Below, one piece after another: positions 7,414-17,108 of a stretch of 64,000 nucleotides of DNA. The DNA comes from Candidatus Eiseniibacteriota bacterium (GTDB lineage: Bacteria > Eisenbacteria > RBG-16-71-46 > CAIMUX01 > VGJL01). Location: assembly GCA_041946735.1 (NCBI GenBank), contig JBHGAY010000023.1, positions 15,900 through 79,899 of the forward strand, given 5' to 3'. A program made the position numbers and the translations under genes. Within the stretch, counting starts at the first letter, position 1, and every line of letters begins with the position of its first letter. The notes under the pieces were generated by a model, which saw only the letters and a list, made by a program, of their open reading frames with translations, did not search any database and was not told where the DNA came from.

Positions 7414-8934
7414 ATGAGAATTCCGATGCGGCCGCACCGCTCCCGGAGAGCTGCCTCGAGTCGCCCGCGATTCGCTCGACCGATCCCCGCCATGTTTCGC
7501 GCCTCCCTCGTCCCCCTCGCCGTTCTCCTGGTCGGCCTCCCGCTCGGCGGCTGCTCTGACGACGACTCGCCGGCAGCCGATCGCGTGGCGCCCGCGCAGG
7601 CCGCGATCTTGACCGTCCAGGTCCATCCGACGGGGGTGTTCCTCGCCTGGACGGCCCCCGGGGATGACGGCAACACCGGGACGGCGGCCGAATACGAGAT
7701 TCGATATTCCACCGGATGGATCACGCAGGAGAACTGGGATACCGGCACCCTGGTACGCAATGTCGAAGCTCCCGAGGAAGCAGGCACGACGCAGGTTGCG
7801 TTCGTCCTCGACCTGGCGCCAGGGACCCTCTACTTCTTTTCCGTTCGGACCGCCGACGAAGCGGGCAACTGGTCTCCGATCTCGGACCCGGTCTCGGCCG
7901 TCACGATCGGCGACAACCCCGAGGACTCACACTGGTGGGACGGATTCGGCAACGAGTCGGCTCCCTTCGGCGACGTGCTCGCCTTGACGGTGCACGACGG
8001 CGAGCTGATCGTGGGCGGCCTGTTCAATCACGTCGGCTCGATGCCCGCAGACGCGGTCGCCGCATGGAACGGAACGAGCTGGCGGGCGCTGGGGAACTCC
8101 AGCGGCCTCGAGACCGTGCAGGCGCTCACTTCGTGGAACGGGAACCTGATCGCGGCCGGACGCGCCGCCATGGCGAAGGGACCGGAGCGCTACATGGTCG
8201 CCTCCTGGGACGGTTCGTCCTGGACTCCGCTCGGACCCGCGACCTGGATCGAAGCGGATGACGAGGTCCGCGCTCTCGCCGTCTTCGAAGGAGACCTGAT
8301 CGCCGGGGGCAGCTTCAATCTCTGTGCGGGAGGCTCATGCCCCAACGTCGCGCGCTGGGACGGCGATTCGTGGTCGCTTCTCTCGGGCGGGCTCGACGGT
8401 CCGGTGCGCGCCCTTCTCGTCCACGACGGCACCCTCTACGCGGCAGGCCACATCGGCGCCGGGACGGTCGGCGTCGCCGCATGGGACGGATCGCACTGGA
8501 AGCCTGTCGGCTCGGGAATCGAAGGGACGGTGACCGCGCTCACCGTCTTCGAAGGCGACCTCGTCGCGGCCGGAGACATCTGCCGGTCGGGCGGATCGGC
8601 GTCGGAGCGGGTCCTGCGCTGGAACGGAAGCTCCTGGTCTGGGGTGGGCGGCAGCGTCCCGATGACATGTCTGCTGTCTCTCGGCGTCCACGACGGCGCC
8701 CTGATCGTGGGGGGGATGTTCGGCCACCAGGGGGCAACGAGCTGCCCGAGTCCGTTCCGCATGCTCTCCGCCTGGGACGGGATCGCCTGGCGCTCCCCCG
8801 GTTCCGGCCTTCTGTCCAGCACCGAGGATGCCGGCGTAGCCGCAATCCAGGCTTACGACGGCGACTTGTATGTTGGCGGCGTATTCCTCGAAGCGGGAGG
8901 TAAGCCGTCGATCTGCATCGCGCGCTGGCGGTGA
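7414..8934 (+). CDS. Lipoprotein with fibronectin-III domain and beta-propeller repeats
   Basis: Lipobox LGGC; FN3-like LAWTAPGDDG..YEIRYS..LYFFSVRTADEAGNWS; repeated W(D/N)GxxW blades. Start may be 7426 or 7492. Confidence 0.8.
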   Translation: MRIPMRPHRSRRAASSRPRFARPIPAMFRASLVPLAVLLVGLPLGGCSDDDSPAADRVAPAQAAILTVQVHPTGVFLAWTAPGDDGNTGTAAEYEIRYSTGWITQENWDTGTLVRNVEAPEEAGTTQVAFVLDLAPGTLYFFSVRTADEAGNWSPISDPVSAVTIGDNPEDSHWWDGFGNESAPFGDVLALTVHDGELIVGGLFNHVGSMPADAVAAWNGTSWRALGNSSGLETVQALTSWNGNLIAAGRAAMAKGPERYMVASWDGSSWTPLGPATWIEADDEVRALAVFEGDLIAGGSFNLCAGGSCPNVARWDGDSWSLLSGGLDGPVRALLVHDGTLYAAGHIGAGTVGVAAWDGSHWKPVGSGIEGTVTALTVFEGDLVAAGDICRSGGSASERVLRWNGSSWSGVGGSVPMTCLLSLGVHDGALIVGGMFGHQGATSCPSPFRMLSAWDGIAWRSPGSGLLSSTEDAGVAAIQAYDGDLYVGGVFLEAGGKPSICIARWR

Positions 8935-8968
8935 TCAGCGGACGTCCTTCCGAGCCTTACGGACTCGC

Positions 8969-9059
8969 CACGAGATCCTTAGCGGATTCCCTCGCGAGAT
9001 CCCTTTGCGGTTCCCTCACGAGATCCTTAGCGGTTCCCTCACCGATTCCTGCGTTCCCT
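8969..9059. repeat. Degenerate 20-24-bp tandem repeat (CACGAGATCCTTAGCGGTTCCCT-like, 4 copies)
   Basis: Units at 8969, 8993, 9017 and 9040, contiguous; TAGAAT follows at 9077-9082. Confidence 0.8.
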
Positions 9060-9149
9060 CGCGATGCCGGTTCCGCTAGAATCGGGACCGCTGAAACGGC
9101 ACATGGTCGCATCGTCTTTCCGCCAGCAGCAACCAGGGGGAACCTCGCC

Positions 9150-10745
9150 ATGGCAAGGACAGCAACGCGGAAGTCCGCAGGGCAGCTTCCATCGAACGCC
9201 AGAATCGGCGTGGCGCTTGCAGCCACCGCCCTCTCGACGCTTCTGATCCTCTCGGGTGCCTTTGCGGTGGCCGCCGCCGCGGACTGGAACAACAAGGGTG
9301 GCAACGCGCAGCGCAACGGACTGACCAGCGAGACCGGGCCGACCTCCGCGACCGTCGCCTGGTCGGGGGCTCGCACGTCGCTGATCGCCTGGCTCCCCGT
9401 CATCGAGGGAGATGACGTCTTCACCGTCCGCCAGGCGAACTGGCCGGGCCAGGTCCACGACGCCTACGTCGTCTGCATGGATCTCATTTCCGGAGGCGAG
9501 CGCTGGGCGGTGGAGCTTCCCGCCGACGAGGGCGACTGGACTCCCTGGATCGCCGGCGTGCGAGACGGCAAGGTGTACGCCTCGCGCTCCGGCAACGGGG
9601 CGAGCGTGTGGGCACCGATGTACTGCCTCGACGCGCAGGACGGCCACACGATCTGGGTGAGCAGCATCGAGCAGAGCGGCGGTCCCTACGACGGCTGCGT
9701 CTTCGCCCCCGACGGCGATCTCATCGTCGCATCCTTCATGGACATCTGGCGATTCGACGCGGCCGACGGCACCGTCGTCTGGCACGCTTCCCGAGTCGGC
9801 TCGGTCAGCGGCAGCTGCGGCGGCGCGTTGTACGGGGATGCGCTCTACGTCGCCGACGCGGTTCCGGGCGGCAACGCGATCGTCTGCTTCGACATCGAGA
9901 CCGGCGCCCGCCGCTATCAGAGCGAGACGATGAGCGGCTTCTTGATCCAGAACACCCCGATGTGCGGCGCGGACGGAACGATCTACCTTGCGCGGACGCA
10001 GAACAATCCCGCCGTCGACTACTACTACGCGTTCACCGACACGGGGACCGAGCTCGTGGAGAAGTGGCACATTCCGGCCGGATACTCCGCCTTTGCGGAG
10101 TTCGCGGCCGGTCCGGACGGTTCGCTCTACTTCATCGTCCCCGGGCCCCGGCTCGCGCGCATCGACCGGGAGACGGGCGAGATCGTCGATCAGACCGATG
10201 TGCTCTCCGGCCTCTCCGCGGCTCACGTTGCGGTCGACGCCGGCGGCAAGGTCTTCTTCTCGAACGGCGGCTTCGCCTCCGGGCGCCTGACATCCTATGA
10301 GGCCGACCTCACGGAACGCTGGAGCGTGCCGGTCCCGAACATCAACATCGGCGGTCCGGCGATCGGACGCTACGGGACGCTCGTCGTCTGCGGCACCGGC
10401 AGCGACATGCGCGCCTACCGCACCCAGGACCCCGCGGACGTCGGCCCGTCGACGGACTTCGCCGCGGGCGGGATCGCGATGCGCGCGGCGCCGAACCCCT
10501 TCGCCGGCGCCACGACGATCGCCTACCGCCTCGTCCGGAGCAGTCCGGTGAGTCTCGAGGTGTTCGCCGCCGATGGGCGTCGCATCGCGCAGCTTCTGTC
10601 GGGCGAGGAGCAGCCCGCCGGCGATCATGCCTTGACGTGGGAAGGCCGTGACGACGCCGGCCGCCCGGTCGCCTCGGGGATCTACTACCTGCGCCTCAGC
10701 GGCGACGGCGAGCTTGGGAGGACGCGAGTTCTGCTCGCGAGATAG
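9150..10745 (+). CDS. Secreted PQQ-like (BamB-type) beta-propeller protein with FlgD-Ig/T9SS-like C-terminal domain
   Basis: Signal peptide, DWNNKGGNAQRNG N-motif, (L/F)DxxxGxxxW blades, tail PNPF..WEGRDDAGRPVASGIYYLRL. Confidence 0.85.
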   Translation: MARTATRKSAGQLPSNARIGVALAATALSTLLILSGAFAVAAAADWNNKGGNAQRNGLTSETGPTSATVAWSGARTSLIAWLPVIEGDDVFTVRQANWPGQVHDAYVVCMDLISGGERWAVELPADEGDWTPWIAGVRDGKVYASRSGNGASVWAPMYCLDAQDGHTIWVSSIEQSGGPYDGCVFAPDGDLIVASFMDIWRFDAADGTVVWHASRVGSVSGSCGGALYGDALYVADAVPGGNAIVCFDIETGARRYQSETMSGFLIQNTPMCGADGTIYLARTQNNPAVDYYYAFTDTGTELVEKWHIPAGYSAFAEFAAGPDGSLYFIVPGPRLARIDRETGEIVDQTDVLSGLSAAHVAVDAGGKVFFSNGGFASGRLTSYEADLTERWSVPVPNINIGGPAIGRYGTLVVCGTGSDMRAYRTQDPADVGPSTDFAAGGIAMRAAPNPFAGATTIAYRLVRSSPVSLEVFAADGRRIAQLLSGEEQPAGDHALTWEGRDDAGRPVASGIYYLRLSGDGELGRTRVLLAR

Positions 10746-10849
10746 GACCTAGGGCATTTCCTTCCCGGGCTTACAGGCCCGGCGGCTCTGCCTCTGCGTC
10801 CCTAACGGCTCTGCCCTCAGCCCGCAGCCGCTCTGCCTTCAGCCCTCTG

Positions 10850-10873
10850 CCCCGGCGCCCTATGGCGCCGGGG
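10850..10873. terminator. GC-rich hairpin, possible terminator or processing stem
   Basis: CCCCGGCGCC-CTAT-GGCGCCGGGG perfect 10-bp stem; no clear U-tract. Confidence 0.3.
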
Positions 10874-10999
10874 TATCAGAGGACCGAACAGTTCGACTCC
10901 TGATGTCCTCGACCTTCCGCCGGTACGCTTGGACGGCGGAAGCTGCTTCCGGATCGCCGTCTTGCCGGCGGAGAGCCCGGCCGCCCGAAGGAGGAACGA

Positions 11000-13354
11000 A
11001 TGATCCCGCACCGCATCTCGGCCCCTCGATCGTCCCTGGCGCTCGTCCTCCTGTTCCTCGTTTCCGCCTGTCCGGCGATCTCGGTGATGATCGGGATCGC
11101 GGCGCCGGCGCCGGCTCTCGCGCAGCCGCCGGATTGGAGCGTTCTCCGTCCCAGCAATTCAGGCATTCCGGGCGAAGAGATCCGTTGCCTTCGATTCGCT
11201 CCGGACGGCGGGTTCTGGGTAGGCGCCCGCTGGCCGTTCTGGCAGGAAGGCGGCATCGGCATCTACGATTCGGCCGCAGACGTATGGACCGACTACTCGA
11301 ACTTCGAGACGCCGATCCCGAGCGAATACGTGAACGATCTCGCCTTCGCGCAGGACGGAAGCGTCTGGATCGCGACGGACGCCGGGCTCGTGCACAAGGG
11401 GGGAGACACCTGGACGGTGTACACCACCGCCAATGCGCCCTTTCTGCATAATGTGATTCGCGAGGTCGAGATCGACTCGGCGGGACGCGTCTGGGTGAAC
11501 AACACCAACGTGCAGAACCAGAATGCAGCGGTGCTGGTCTGGGACGGCTCCACCTGGCGCTCCTTTCGCGTACCGACCGACATCCCGTGGCAGGACCCGT
11601 GGCGTCAGCTTCAAGGGCTCCTCGTCGACCGGCAGGATCATGTCTGGATCGGCAACATGACCTTGCCGGGCGTGGCCGAGTACGACGGGCAGTCCTGGAT
11701 CCTCCGCGGGCAGAACATCGATCTTCTCGTGCCGCACGCCGCCGATCTGGCGAACGGGGTCTGGATGATCACGGGAAACCTGGGCTACCAGGTCTATCGA
11801 TGGAACGGCAGCCAGTTCGTCCTCTTCGGCGGAACGCCGCCGCCGCTGAGCAACACGACGATCACGGAGGTCGCAGTCGACGGCTCCGGCGCGGTCTTCA
11901 TCGGCAACTGGGTTGGAGAGACGGTCAAATCCACGAACCTGGGGCAGGCGTGGGCGCCTTTCACCGTCGTTTCGGACAGGGTCACCGGATTCGCTTTCGA
12001 TGCGGACGGCGCAGAGGTGTGGATCGGAAGCGCGGGGGCGATCCACCGCTTCTCGGCCGGTGCGCAGCCGATCCACGTCTACAACACCTACAACACGGGC
12101 ATCCCCGACTTCTGGATCGATCGCATGTCGACCGACCGCGACGGCTACTTCTGGCTTGCGACCGGAGAAGCGGGGTTGTCGCGATTCGACGGGCTCCGAT
12201 GGCGGAACTGGGGCGACCACAATGCCGGCTCCGAGCCGTATCCCTTCGCCGGCAACGAACCGATGGGCTGCGCGTACCAGGATCGGTCGGGAACCCATTG
12301 GTTCGGCGGCAACGGCATCGCGCGCTGGGACTCCGGCACCGGGCAGTTCACCGGCTTCTGGAACTGGCAGAACAATCCCGGAATGGGTGTGGGACTTTGG
12401 ATCGCCTTCGCGGAGGACATGGCGGGGAAGCTCTTCTCCGCCGAGGAGTATGGATCGATCTACCGGTTCGACGAAGGGCAGCAACGATGGGTGCGGGAGC
12501 CGGTTCAACCGTACGCCCCCCTCGGGCTGCCCGGAATGCAGGCGGACAGCCACGGCAATGTCTGGATCGCCGGCTGGTTCGATCTGTACAAATGGGACGG
12601 GTCGACCTGGTCGACAGTCACGCTCCCCGATCCGAACTACTTCTTCGACCTCGGGGGCATCTCCTGCCTGGACATCGGGCCGGATGGGACGTTCTGGATC
12701 GGCACCGGGGGCGGGCTCGTGCGGTGGGACGGGACGACCTTCACGTTATTCGATCCGTCCCAGGTTCCCTTGCCCGCGAACTTCGTAAGCGGCGTAGACG
12801 CGCGGGAGGACGGGCTGCTGGCCCTGGCGGCCGCGGACGACCAGGCTCATAGCGGCGTCTGCCTGATCGACGGAGATCCGGCCGTTCCTTCCAACTGGAC
12901 GGTGTACCAATACGGCAGCTCTCCTCTGCAGCACTGGCAGCTCGGGACCGTCGCCTTCGACGGCAACGGCGACCTGTGGGTCAGCTGTCTGAGCATGGGA
13001 GTGGTGATCCTGCGGATCGGACAATCTCCGGCCAACGTCGCGCAAAACGGATCGCCTGTTCCCGGCGAGATGCTCGCGGTCGGCTCCCCATCGCCGAACC
13101 CCTTCCACGACGCAACCTCGATGCGCTACTCGATCGCGCGGGCGGCAGCCGTGACGTTCGACATTTTCGATCCGCAGGGGCGGCGGGTGCGCCGTCTCGT
13201 CGACGCGCACCAGAGCGCGGGAGAGTACGTGGTGGGATGGACGGGAACCGACGAGGCCGGCCGGCCGGTGCCGAGCGGCGTCTACTTCGGCCGGATCCAA
13301 TCCTCGGACCCGGCGGGTGGGACACGTACGATCCGGATCGTCAAGACCGAGTGA
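11000..13354 (+). CDS. Secreted two-component-regulator-propeller (Reg_prop-like) repeat protein with FlgD-Ig/T9SS-like C-terminal domain
   Basis: GAAGGAGGA SD; signal peptide; many DxxGxxW(I/V)(G/A) blades; tail PNPF..IFDPQGRRVRRL..WTGTDEAGRPVPSGVYF. Confidence 0.88.
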   Translation: MIPHRISAPRSSLALVLLFLVSACPAISVMIGIAAPAPALAQPPDWSVLRPSNSGIPGEEIRCLRFAPDGGFWVGARWPFWQEGGIGIYDSAADVWTDYSNFETPIPSEYVNDLAFAQDGSVWIATDAGLVHKGGDTWTVYTTANAPFLHNVIREVEIDSAGRVWVNNTNVQNQNAAVLVWDGSTWRSFRVPTDIPWQDPWRQLQGLLVDRQDHVWIGNMTLPGVAEYDGQSWILRGQNIDLLVPHAADLANGVWMITGNLGYQVYRWNGSQFVLFGGTPPPLSNTTITEVAVDGSGAVFIGNWVGETVKSTNLGQAWAPFTVVSDRVTGFAFDADGAEVWIGSAGAIHRFSAGAQPIHVYNTYNTGIPDFWIDRMSTDRDGYFWLATGEAGLSRFDGLRWRNWGDHNAGSEPYPFAGNEPMGCAYQDRSGTHWFGGNGIARWDSGTGQFTGFWNWQNNPGMGVGLWIAFAEDMAGKLFSAEEYGSIYRFDEGQQRWVREPVQPYAPLGLPGMQADSHGNVWIAGWFDLYKWDGSTWSTVTLPDPNYFFDLGGISCLDIGPDGTFWIGTGGGLVRWDGTTFTLFDPSQVPLPANFVSGVDAREDGLLALAAADDQAHSGVCLIDGDPAVPSNWTVYQYGSSPLQHWQLGTVAFDGNGDLWVSCLSMGVVILRIGQSPANVAQNGSPVPGEMLAVGSPSPNPFHDATSMRYSIARAAAVTFDIFDPQGRRVRRLVDAHQSAGEYVVGWTGTDEAGRPVPSGVYFGRIQSSDPAGGTRTIRIVKTE

Positions 13355-14180: not shown

Positions 14181-14501
14181 TCACCCGGCATCCTCATCCC
14201 AGGAGACGATGAAGAGGACGACCGGCTCAGAGCCGGGATTGCCGGCTCGATGCTCGGTCCCCGCATCGATCTCGAAGCCATCACCTTGCTCGATGGTCAA
14301 GGAGCCGTTCCGGAGTTCGAAGCGCAGCGCTCCGCCGAGGACGTAACCGGCATGCCCGCGAGCGCACCAGTTCGGATCGGCGAAGCCGGGCTCGAACGCG
14401 AGCATGGCCGCGCGCGCGCCGGGAAGGCTCTTCTTGCGCTCGAGCGGATGCCCACCCGGTTGCCAAGGAAGCTGTCGAAAGGGAATTCCCGTTTCGTTCA
14501 T
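14181..14501 (-). CDS. Cupin domain protein
   Basis: ATG at 14501 with GGAGGAG SD; WCARGHAGYVLGG and GDGFEIDAGTEH cupin motifs; 106 aa. Confidence 0.8.
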   Translation of the reverse strand: MNETGIPFRQLPWQPGGHPLERKKSLPGARAAMLAFEPGFADPNWCARGHAGYVLGGALRFELRNGSLTIEQGDGFEIDAGTEHRAGNPGSEPVVLFIVSWDEDAG

Positions 14502-14787
14502 GCGCTCTCCTCCTGCCGAATGGCGTCCGGAGCGCCGAACGTAGATGCCGTCGAACCGAGGGTCAAGGATCGCAGCGGGCCCGGCGGGTCCGCGCCCCCG
14601 GCCAGTCCGCCGCCCTCGCCGGCTCGCGCCCGGTCGCAGCGCCGTGGCGACAGACACCGCATGGCCGCCTCAGTGCCATCACCTAGCATCAGTCACCTCT
14701 CGCCCATACGACCGTGGAGCGCGTACAATTGCCCCCGGCTGACTGGAAGAGCCTTGCGTGAACAGTGGCAGTGGAAAGGAGGAGGTC

Positions 14788-15738
14788 ATGCGAGCACTGG
14801 CCGCATCGTTGCTCGCCTCTTTGATCCTGTCCGTGCCGGCGATTGCCGCCACCTATGTCGTCGATCCCTATGGCACCGGCGACTACCCGACGATCCAGGC
14901 CGCCGTGAACGGTTCCGCCAGCGGCGATGTGATCGAGCTGACCGATGGGACCTTCACCGGCCCCGGCAACCGGGACATCCGGTTCAATGGAAAGGACCTC
15001 ACCGTCCGGTCGCAGAGCGGCGATCCCACACGCACGGTCATCGACTGCGAGCTGGCGGAGCAGGCGTTCCTCATCTGGGAGGGCGAAGAGGTGCACTTCC
15101 AGGGAATGACGATGACCCGGGGGCGCGACTCCTCCTGGGGAGGAGCCGTCTGTGTGGAGATGGCGGCTCACGGAGTTTTTCGGGACTGCATCTTCAGCGA
15201 CAACAGCGCGCCGGGCAACGCCGGAGCCGTGATGATCATGAACTGCGGGTACGCGGAGTTCGAGGGGTGCACCTTCATCGACAACTCCAGCTATGCGGGC
15301 GGCGCCGTATGCACCTGACCCGGTGACATTGCACTGGTCCAGTGCACCTTCTACGACAACCAGGCCGAGGAAGGCAGCGCGATCTCCTTCCGCGGCGGTT
15401 GCGGAGTGGAGCTACGCGTCGAGAACACGATCATCGCCTTCAACAACGGCGGCTCGGCCATCGAGGGCGGCGCCGATGCCTTCTTCAGCTGCGTGGACAT
15501 CTATGGCAATCCGGGCGGCGACTGGACGCCGGCGATCGTCGACCAGCTCGGCCTGCGCGGAAACATCAGCGACGACCCGCTCTTTTGCGACGCTGCGGGC
15601 GGAGACCTTCGCCTGAATGAGGGCTCCCCCTGCGCGCCGGGCGGCGAGTGCGACAGGATGGGCGCCTGGCCGGTCGGGTGCGAGGCGACCGCCATCCGCG
15701 AGGCGAGCTGGGGCGAGGTCAAAGCGCTGTTCCGGTAG
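14788..15738 (+). CDS. Secreted right-handed parallel beta-helix protein with in-frame UGA (putative selenocysteine, residue 177) and SWG C-terminal tail; 316 aa
   Basis: AGGAGG SD + ATG 14788; signal peptide; DYPTIQAAV start; GGA(V/I)..CxFxDN repeats continue in register across TGA 15316-15318 into ORF 15406..15738 (same frame); SECIS-like hairpin follows. Confidence 0.8.
15319..15348 (+). promoter_or_regulatory. Putative bacterial SECIS element
   Basis: 11 nt after UGA: TGCACTG-GTC-CAGTGCA (stem 15330-15336/15340-15346); loop G at +19; GGUC apex like the E. coli fdhF SECIS. Confidence 0.75.
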
Positions 15739-15851
15739 AGGCGGCCCCGGCTCATCGGCGGATCGAGTTTCGTGGGATCGAGCTTCGACAGAGGCGCGGC
15801 AGGGAGCGAGACCCGGCCGCGCTTCCTCTACGGGCTCGTGAAGGTTCGCCG

Positions 15852-17108
15852 CTACTTGCCGATCAGCACCAAGACGGCCGAGCCGATCGCGAGGACTGCC
15901 AGCGCCGCGCACAGCAGGATGCAGGCGATGTTGTAGGCGAGAGAGTTCGTCCGCTCCCCCATGATCCGGCGGTCGTTGATCAGGATCAGCATGAAGACCA
16001 GGACGATCGGTAGGACCATGCCGTTCACCACCTGGCTCACGTACATGACCCCGAGCAGCGAGATCTTCGGGATCAAGACGGCCCCGGCCCCGATCGCGAT
16101 CAACGCGGTGTAGAGGATGTAGAACTCCCGCGCTTCGTCGAAGGAACGGCTGATCCCCGACTCCCATCCGAACGATTCGCAGATCGTGTAGGACGTCGAA
16201 AGCGGCAGGATGCTGGCCGCGAACACCGAGGCGTTCAGCAGTCCGAACGCGAAGAGCAACGACGCGTACCGCCCGGCGATCGGAGCGAGGCCGCGCGCCG
16301 CATCGGCGGCGGACTCGATCCGCATCCCCTGGGCGTGCAGGTTCGTCGAGCAAACGACGACGATGAAGACGGCGACGACCGTGACGGAGAGGCATCCGAC
16401 GATCGTGTCGATCCGGGAGAGATAGTAATCCTCCACGCGGATGTTCTTTTCGACGACCGCAGCCTGCTGGTAGAACTGCATCCACGGCGCGATCGTCGTC
16501 CCGACGAGCGCAATCAGCATGATCAGGTAGTCGGCATCCCCCTGCAGATGGGGGACGAGCAGCGCATGCGCGACCTCGCCTGCCGGTGGATGGCTCACGG
16601 CTCCCGCCACGATGTAGCTGATGTAGAACGTGCAGGCGACGAGGAACACCTTCTCGACCGTCCGGTAGCTCGACCGAAGGACGATCGCCCAGACGAAGAG
16701 CGCCGCGATCGGAACCGCGACCCAGCGCGGGACTCCGAAGATCTCTCCCGCCGCCGCCACTCCCGCGAACTCGGCCAGGATGTTGCCGAAGTTCGTCACC
16801 AGGAGCCCGGCCATCAGATAGAAGGTGATCTTGACGCCAAACCGCTCCCGGATCAGGTCGGAAAGCCCCTTGCCGGAAACGACCCCCATCCGGTTGGACA
16901 TCTCCTGCACCACGATCAGCGCGAGGCAGAGCGGCAGGAAGATCCAGAGCGTCGCGAGTCCGTAGCGGGAGCCGGCTTGCGAGTAGGTGGTGATGCCGCC
17001 CGCATCGTTGTCGACGTTCGCCGTGATGACACCGGGTCCGAGGATCGCGAGGAAGAGGCCCAGGCGGGCGCCGATGCCGCGGACCGCCCCGCGAGCCCGC
17101 ACCTTCAA
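15852..17108 (-). CDS. NRAMP-family divalent cation transporter, NRAMP-related magnesium transporter type
   Basis: About 11 TM segments; GPGVITANVDNDAGG (in place of DPGN) and GTTIAPW (in place of MPH). Confidence 0.88.
   Translation of the reverse strand: MKVRARGAVRGIGARLGLFLAILGPGVITANVDNDAGGITTYSQAGSRYGLATLWIFLPLCLALIVVQEMSNRMGVVSGKGLSDLIRERFGVKITFYLMAGLLVTNFGNILAEFAGVAAAGEIFGVPRWVAVPIAALFVWAIVLRSSYRTVEKVFLVACTFYISYIVAGAVSHPPAGEVAHALLVPHLQGDADYLIMLIALVGTTIAPWMQFYQQAAVVEKNIRVEDYYLSRIDTIVGCLSVTVVAVFIVVVCSTNLHAQGMRIESAADAARGLAPIAGRYASLLFAFGLLNASVFAASILPLSTSYTICESFGWESGISRSFDEAREFYILYTALIAIGAGAVLIPKISLLGVMYVSQVVNGMVLPIVLVFMLILINDRRIMGERTNSLAYNIACILLCAALAVLAIGSAVLVLIGK

Follow-up and report, generated by a model that had tools for sequence, protein, structure and literature searches.

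A probable selenoprotein gene for an exported beta-helix protein, split in two by gene callers, in a Candidatus Eiseniibacteriota genome

The window, that is, the whole 64,000-nucleotide stretch of Candidatus Eiseniibacteriota DNA analyzed here, contains on its plus strand two open reading frames (14758..15318 and 15406..15738) that share a common frame and are separated by a sole intervening stop codon, TGA 15316-15318. An earlier, sequence-only reading of this DNA had proposed that the two frames are halves of one selenoprotein gene, and re-reading of the window agrees with its description of the frames. With TGA translated as selenocysteine (Sec, U), the ATG at 14788 starts a gene of 316 codons followed by a TAG stop (14788..15738, plus strand), whose product of 316 residues carries Sec at position 177, in the context ...NSSYAGGAVCT-U-PGDIALVQCTFYDNQAEEGSAISF.... 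As had also been claimed, the register of the GGA[VI]...C.F..N repeat remains unbroken across the TGA in this translation (...AGGAVCT-U-PGDIALVQCTFYDN...). A Shine-Dalgarno-like sequence read directly from the window, AAGGAGGAGG (14776..14785, plus strand), is located 2 nt 5' of the start codon, and a scan of 14500-16000 for promoter and terminator consensus sequences yielded no match. Residues 1-20/21 (14788..14850, plus strand) constitute a candidate signal peptide recognized by eye (MR, a hydrophobic core and A-I-A), with no lipobox Cys in this region, and a similar hydrophobic N-terminus is found in all 19 rows of an alignment of family proteins (A1).

The UGA itself (15316..15318, plus strand) is read as Sec on the evidence of the orthologues described below and of the corresponding column of A1, which holds U in 18/18 rows of the class of genes to which the window gene belongs (class A, see below) and C in the remaining protein, P0024. 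Downstream of it, the C-terminal 139 codons (15319..15735, plus strand), which are translated only if the UGA is decoded, encode the last helix coils, a Cys-rich cap (CxDIYGN.GGDW ... SPCAP ... GAWPVGC) and a WG.[IV]K.LF tail; this part is conserved through the common tail in A1, and the selection analysis below bears on it as well. Logan contigs from three runs of three studies (industrial waste, soil and rhizosphere metagenomes) have the same sequence as the window over the TGA, the first two being possibly the source of this very DNA and the third, the rhizosphere run, covering only 15092-15346 at a depth of 4. The tail at 15700-15735 of the window belongs to a wider pattern, [ST]WG.[ILV][KR].[LF][FY], which ends most single-module proteins of the family, including the products of other genes of this genome, and may serve in sorting or anchoring, or else represent no more than the module's last helix.

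Homologs were collected from 61 related genomes, from further loci, and from a scan in which each GTDB species was represented by a single genome. Most of the source records are titled Candidatus Eisenbacteria or Eiseniibacteriota, and a few are labelled Krumholzibacteriia, Fibrobacteraceae or other groups. The resulting set comprises 168 distinct homologous genes, 38 of which contain an in-frame TGA. The repeat register slipped in the first MAFFT alignment of all homologs (L017 was misaligned), and the TGA-bearing genes were then assigned to classes by the local motif. Class A, the type of the window gene, consists of 23 distinct paralogous genes from several Eisenbacteria-type genomes, with up to ~7 copies per genome (G007), and is characterized by the motif ...GG[AG].x.-U-x(3-6)-A-L-V-[QE]-C-T-F.... 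Each class A gene contains exactly one internal TGA, always at the motif, and no non-TGA gene among the 168 homologs encodes ALV[QE]C. The C-T-U motif emphasized in the sequence-only reading is present in the window gene but is not general: the residue at position -2 is Cys in 11/23 class A paralogs, Arg in 8/23 and another residue in 4/23. Eleven of the 23 genes also terminate with TGA, which implies that TGA is still a terminator in these organisms. In the genomes searched, the family has a patchy distribution, with local expansions in Eisenbacteria-type bacteria.

Immediately 3' of the UGA lies a SECIS-like hairpin, U-GCACUG-GUC-CAGUGC-A (15330..15346, plus strand). The sequence-only reading had placed it exactly 11 nt after the UGA, where it was indeed found; it begins 11-12 nt 3' of the UGA. 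The prototype of genes decoded by SelB through a SECIS is fdhF of Escherichia coli, in which the SECIS starts 11 nt after the UGA and has a GGUC apex; more generally, a bacterial SECIS is recognized as a stem-loop at a fixed short distance 3' of the UGA with G/U in the apical loop. The core 5-bp stem of the hairpin pairs 15331-15335 with 15341-15345, and the structure overlaps codons A182-C186. Alone, the hairpin has a predicted energy of -8.8 kcal/mol, and the 66-nt stretch 15310-15375, which includes the UGA, folds better than its shuffles (z = -2.5). An Rfam scan of 15200-15500 at E<=10 gave no match.

The hairpin, of the form GCACUGGUC(C/G)AGUGC, is present in 23/23 class A genes, with an apical loop of GUC or GGUC(C/G). 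In 20 of the genes, the spacer between UGA and stem is 12 nt long, and in the other 3 it is 15 nt. The core pairs (GCACU with AGUGC) are formed in 115/115 cells, and the few changes in the stem all keep the pairing (G:C to A:U in L020, A:U to G:U in L015 and C:G to U:G in L046). Because the class A stem barely varies, the covariation statistic is weak: 79/500 shuffles reach the observed score, and 13/500 reach the observed number of pairs changed on both sides. The stronger arguments are synonymous constraint, exclusivity to the TGA forms and genome-wide specificity. The Ala codon within the stem is GCA in 20/21 class A cases versus 104/767 (13.6%) elsewhere in the same genes, that is, the hairpin forces a rare codon. 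In line with the expectation that the hairpin would accompany only the TGA forms, it is absent from 55 non-TGA homologs, and the median energy of the corresponding 21-nt window is -7.9 kcal/mol in 21 class A genes versus -1.0 kcal/mol in these 55 genes. In the 4.9 Mb genome, both strands taken together, the hairpin motif occurs a single time. Across the phylum, the 17-nt pattern has 19 occurrences in 7/206 genomes, compared with 0 for a reversed control, and 18 of the 19 are located 12-15 nt 3' of an in-frame TGA within a beta-helix repeat. The remaining occurrence, L155 (G023:C1:7426-7442), is an exact copy of the hairpin that is closely preceded by an in-frame TGA and TAA and lacks a beta-helix frame on its 5' side, apparently a degenerate, 5'-truncated remnant of a class A gene.

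Seven proteins that are 65-99% identical to the window protein are found in a collection of 5.8 billion proteins, and all seven are 176 residues long and end in ...GGAVCT, indicating that gene callers stop at the same codon everywhere. Metagenome contigs provided the full gene of two orthologs, L141 (78% identity) and L142 (72%). In both, codon 177 is TGA, the 316-codon frame is whole and begins and ends where that of the window gene does, and the hairpin is retained, in L142 as a Q-to-E variant (GUCGAG). For the three pairs, Nei-Gojobori estimates of dN/dS are 0.14-0.18 for codons 178-316, downstream of the UGA (dS 0.75-0.88), versus 0.11-0.20 for codons 22-176, upstream of it (dS 0.94-1.26). 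Purifying selection downstream is as strong as upstream, which implies that the stretch after the UGA is translated; the relaxed selection that would have spoken against a selenoprotein is not seen. By these estimates, the UGA has survived approximately one synonymous substitution per site.

The genome has the means to decode it. The window lies on contig C16 of an assembly of 4.89 Mb that is 94.8% complete, and the search for Sec genes that the sequence-only reading had called for detected selD (388 bits), selA (479 bits) and selB (349 bits), all above the curated NCBIfam cut-offs, as well as a 96-nt tRNA-SeC(tca) on contig C10 (aragorn). The selD gene (L001, G000 contig C2:108941-109867, minus strand) itself contains one in-frame TGA at the active-site position (...CAG-U-ASKIAPG...), followed by a 7-bp hairpin that begins 12 nt 3' of the UGA, a geometry that matches that of the window gene. 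Furthermore, selA is present in 57/61 related genomes and in 45/45 of the high-quality ones, suggesting that Sec use is general in this class. The window gene thus resembles known genes with an intragenic SECIS of the fdhF type in its in-frame UGA, in the hairpin 11-12 nt downstream with a GGUC-like apical loop, and in the presence of selA, selB, selD and tRNA-Sec in the same genome; it differs from them in its short stem of 5-7 bp, which lacks a bulged U, and in a host protein that is not an oxidoreductase.

Taken together, the complete machinery, the retention of TGA in orthologs and paralogs and the selection downstream bear out the Sec interpretation of the sequence-only reading, and we consider it very likely that the mis-split gene is one real selenoprotein gene that relies on ordinary bacterial Sec recoding. 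The single gene at 14788-15738 (plus strand) would produce an exported right-handed beta-helix protein of 316 residues, with the UGA at codon 177 decoded as Sec via the canonical bacterial route: the mRNA hairpin over the A-L-V-Q-C codons would act as the SECIS and recruit SelB with Sec-tRNA(Sec). Since this RNA signal would lie inside the reading frame, it would freeze the ALV[QE]C peptide motif along with the synonymous sites in it. The sequence data demonstrate a conserved UGA and hairpin, the Sec machinery and purifying selection on the frame downstream; from there we infer that the residue inserted at 177 is Sec rather than another one, and that export proceeds via the Sec translocon.

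The main competitor of this interpretation is programmed read-through, or regulated termination, without Sec, in which the UGA would be read by a near-cognate tRNA for Trp, Cys or Arg, the hairpin would slow termination, and both a short and a long product would be made. A translated downstream frame and a conserved hairpin would fit the insertion of another residue as well, and the site is variable in the non-Sec relatives. However, the genome has the full Sec machinery, the 12-nt spacing of the hairpin is that of the Sec-containing selD of the same genome, a Cys form exists (P0024), and the short product of 176 residues would, on the structural model, be half of a beta-helix without its cap. 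In addition, the G/U-containing apex of the class A hairpin presumably corresponds to the SelB-binding type. We therefore regard read-through without Sec as improbable. Still less credible is the arrangement in which table 11 ORF calling results and in which the relatives are stored in databases, namely two genes, one for a secreted protein of 176 residues ending at the TGA and the other for a protein of 110 residues starting at GTG 15406. The family's best-conserved motif falls within the 29 codons that separate the TGA from this GTG, all of which are conserved in frame. The downstream part lacks a signal peptide, neither the repeat register nor the fold is interrupted at the TGA, and the arrangement is seen again in 23 paralogs, among which the distance to any start codon further downstream differs.

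Broken genes most commonly show themselves by one stop within the frame, which would speak for a pseudogene, or for a TGG or TGC that was turned into TGA by faulty sequencing or assembly. As far as sequence comparison goes, this explanation is refuted, and we assign it next to no weight: the TGA is kept in orthologs at a dS of ~0.8-1.2 and in 23 paralogs, dN/dS downstream is ~0.15, and the contigs from three runs, two of which may themselves have yielded this DNA, agree with the window at the site. Equally implausible is that this lineage has turned TGA into a sense codon for Trp or Gly. Such a change would explain the open frame, which is all that speaks for it, but not the presence of a single internal TGA per gene, always at the motif, or the 11/23 class A genes that terminate with TGA, and the genome is of high G+C content and has the full Sec machinery.

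The sequence-only reading had expected TGA or Cys at codon 177 of the homologs. The TGA is indeed kept, and Cys is found in the Sec column of P0024, a full-length protein of 310 aa that is 45% identical to the window protein (...GAICI-C-AVGSALVQCTFYDN...), but the closest non-Sec relatives are mostly variable there, with V, Q, S, N or E in the others. In an exhaustive profile search, in which the best 150 matches were giant multi-module proteins, the class A motif with Cys appeared only in P0024, so that the classical Sec/Cys pairing rests on a single sequence. An HMM tally of the Sec column gave C in 78/506 filled cells, a figure biased by the C that the profile held at this position and blurred by the repeat register. 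A quick maximum-likelihood tree of 84 single-module homologs united 20 of the 21 class A rows and P0024 in a group that comprises 25 rows in all (SH-aLRT 91, not starred) and placed L020 elsewhere with weak support; the underlying alignment retained the Sec columns, which favors clustering of class A. On this tree, class A may be of single origin. Because the non-Sec relatives are variable at this column, the Sec site looks like a variable surface position that gained Sec rather than an old catalytic Cys. Selenoproteins do not usually show such variability, and it is here that the case is weakest.

The product matches the Pfam families Beta_helix (PF13229; 38.2 bits versus a gathering cut-off of 25.9) and Chlam_PMP (PF02415, GGA[ILV]/FxxN; 29.2 bits versus 20.6), the best stretch of the latter being residues 161-176, just before Sec; this PF02415 match concerns the repeat only and not the autotransporter architecture. 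No NCBIfam model is significant for the window protein (P0001). The module is very common: at E<=0.001, the profile is matched by 191,574 library proteins, many of which consist of giant tandem arrays. An AlphaFold2 model built from a 19-row alignment (pLDDT 80, pTM 0.82; pLDDT ~90 near residue 177) is predicted to consist of stacked short strands in a right-handed beta-helix pattern. The leading matches in a Foldseek search against the PDB are all beta-helices and generic, the best one being the pectin methylesterase 1xg2 (E 2.3e-4, TM 0.36). Pectin methylesterases and PL6/PL9 lyases share with the window protein the general beta-helix fold only, and differ from it with TM scores of 0.3-0.46 and identities of 8-15%, with 2.3e-4 as the best E-value. 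No Pfam match to pectin methylesterase or polysaccharide lyase families was obtained at E<=1, and these matches offer no basis for assigning either activity to the protein. Much closer are the PF13229/PF02415 beta-helix repeat proteins that abound in Candidatus Eisenbacteria: they have the same N-terminal cap, GGA.../C.F..N coils, Cys-rich cap and WG.IK.LF tail, and differ in having no UGA, no hairpin and a variable residue at the Sec column.

In the family pattern, positions 174 and 176 are hydrophobic and 175 and 177 variable, which suggests that U177 and C175 face the solvent at a strand end, beside a P/G-G turn; the same ladder position is occupied by Met and Arg in the neighboring coils. 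It is conceivable, if somewhat doubtful, that U177 is exposed to solvent on a strand bordering the last full coil and that its selenol is used in redox or metal/chalcogen chemistry. A Cys at -2 or in the next coil could serve as its partner in some family members. No catalytic signature or function-indicating neighborhood was found for the beta-helix protein.

The sequence-only reading did not recognize the family as described, and it is likewise absent from the selenoprotein catalogs consulted, in the parts covered: the table within the text of the 87-family catalog of 2022 lists no beta-helix selenoprotein family (PMC9312934), and that of the 119-family catalog of 2026 mentions neither such a family nor Eisenbacteria (PMC13188914). 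No beta-helix selenoprotein appears in the covered part of deep-Sep (PMC12013277), in the covered part of the BSepDB main text (PMC13326102), or in the covered part of the Haft preprint on eight families. Full-text searches of papers available without subscription found no literature linking Eisenbacteria with selenocysteine, and only unrelated papers on selenocysteine with the parallel beta-helix. The exported beta-helix selenoprotein family is thus apparently new, and the recoding mechanism is a known one. In the covered parts of the same sources, predicted extracytoplasmic selenoproteins include a TonB-dependent receptor (FCYXU type), an MtrB/PioB-like outer-membrane barrel and SaoB/SaoC (PMC12013277, PMC9312934, PMC13188914, Haft preprint). 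As described there, these resemble the protein discussed here in having Sec in a signal-peptide protein that works outside the cytoplasm; they have other folds and no sequence relation to it.

Most known bacterial selenoproteins are thiol-oxidoreductase-like. According to the covered part of the 2022 catalog, the majority have a Trx-like fold (PMC9312934). Sec on the surface of an exported beta-helix would widen the range of places where selenium is used and point to a function that could not be guessed from the fold. The family also exposes a systematic annotation error, its genes being cut in two by gene callers; with the genes stored as 176-residue stumps, selenoproteome counts for the phylum are too low. 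Furthermore, it would provide a clean example of an RNA signal that fixes both a peptide motif (ALV[QE]C) and the synonymous sites of that motif.

Thirteen other TGA-bearing homologs, denoted class B, are mostly longer proteins with the predicted Sec near the first coils, usually in the context ...G-U-P-x-C-[NDS]-G-G-G-[VF]-x-C (a U-x-x-C motif) or U-SGSKGGG. Their hairpin is of a different type, GGCGG(U/C)GGGGUC(U/C)(A/G)CUGCC, for which RNAalifold predicts 8 pairs; pair 30-38 is U:A in 5 sequences and C:G in 4, a switch that couples a synonymous Gly site to a Tyr/His-versus-Arg codon. Eight of these sites (L066, L068, L079, L086, L095, L111, L127 and L064) are in multi-module beta-helix proteins of 400-770 aa from Eisenbacteria MAGs. 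The genome of the window gene has two tandem beta-helix genes on the minus strand of contig C5 (G000), near the contig end, which cuts one of them. Both contain an in-frame TGA in ...EG[MT]-U-P-[WY]-C-S-GGGVRC, the hairpin GGCGGCGGGGUCCGCUGC and a FlgD-Ig/T9SS-like C-terminus, and they are class B selenoprotein candidates by sequence. A TGA in a beta-helix-like frame on contig C23 of the same genome was rejected, since the upstream frame does not read as this protein.

Putting the two classes together, one may tentatively picture in Eisenbacteria and their neighbors a radiation of extracellular beta-helix selenoproteins in which Sec was gained at least twice, at a variable position on the surface of the last coil in class A and in a U-x-x-C loop close to the first coils in class B, in neither case from an ancient catalytic Cys; we consider this a genuine possibility, short of a likely one. 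If it were true, it would imply an unrecognized cell-surface selenium chemistry, such as redox reactions, metal/chalcogen capture or covalent catalysis on a polymer-binding scaffold, and the class A SECIS would have turned into the most conserved 'protein motif' of the family. In two further genes, L023 (G034:C102; ...VAFS-U-EGEAVF...) and L114 (...AEDG-U-KREIAL...), the TGA lies outside both motifs and is accompanied by neither type of hairpin; these TGAs may mark further Sec sites or broken genes.

Finally, the neighbors of the window gene (a propeller/FlgD-Ig protein, an Asp/Glu racemase, a cupin, Nramp and an MgtE-like gene) give no functional hint. Three consecutive plus-strand genes at 7414-13354 of the window encode exported propeller-type proteins (Rax2/fn3, PQQ_2/BamB-like and Reg_prop), of which the PQQ_2/BamB-like and Reg_prop proteins have FlgD Ig-like C-terminal domains. 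This arrangement suggests a putative surface-protein cluster upstream of the selenoprotein gene.
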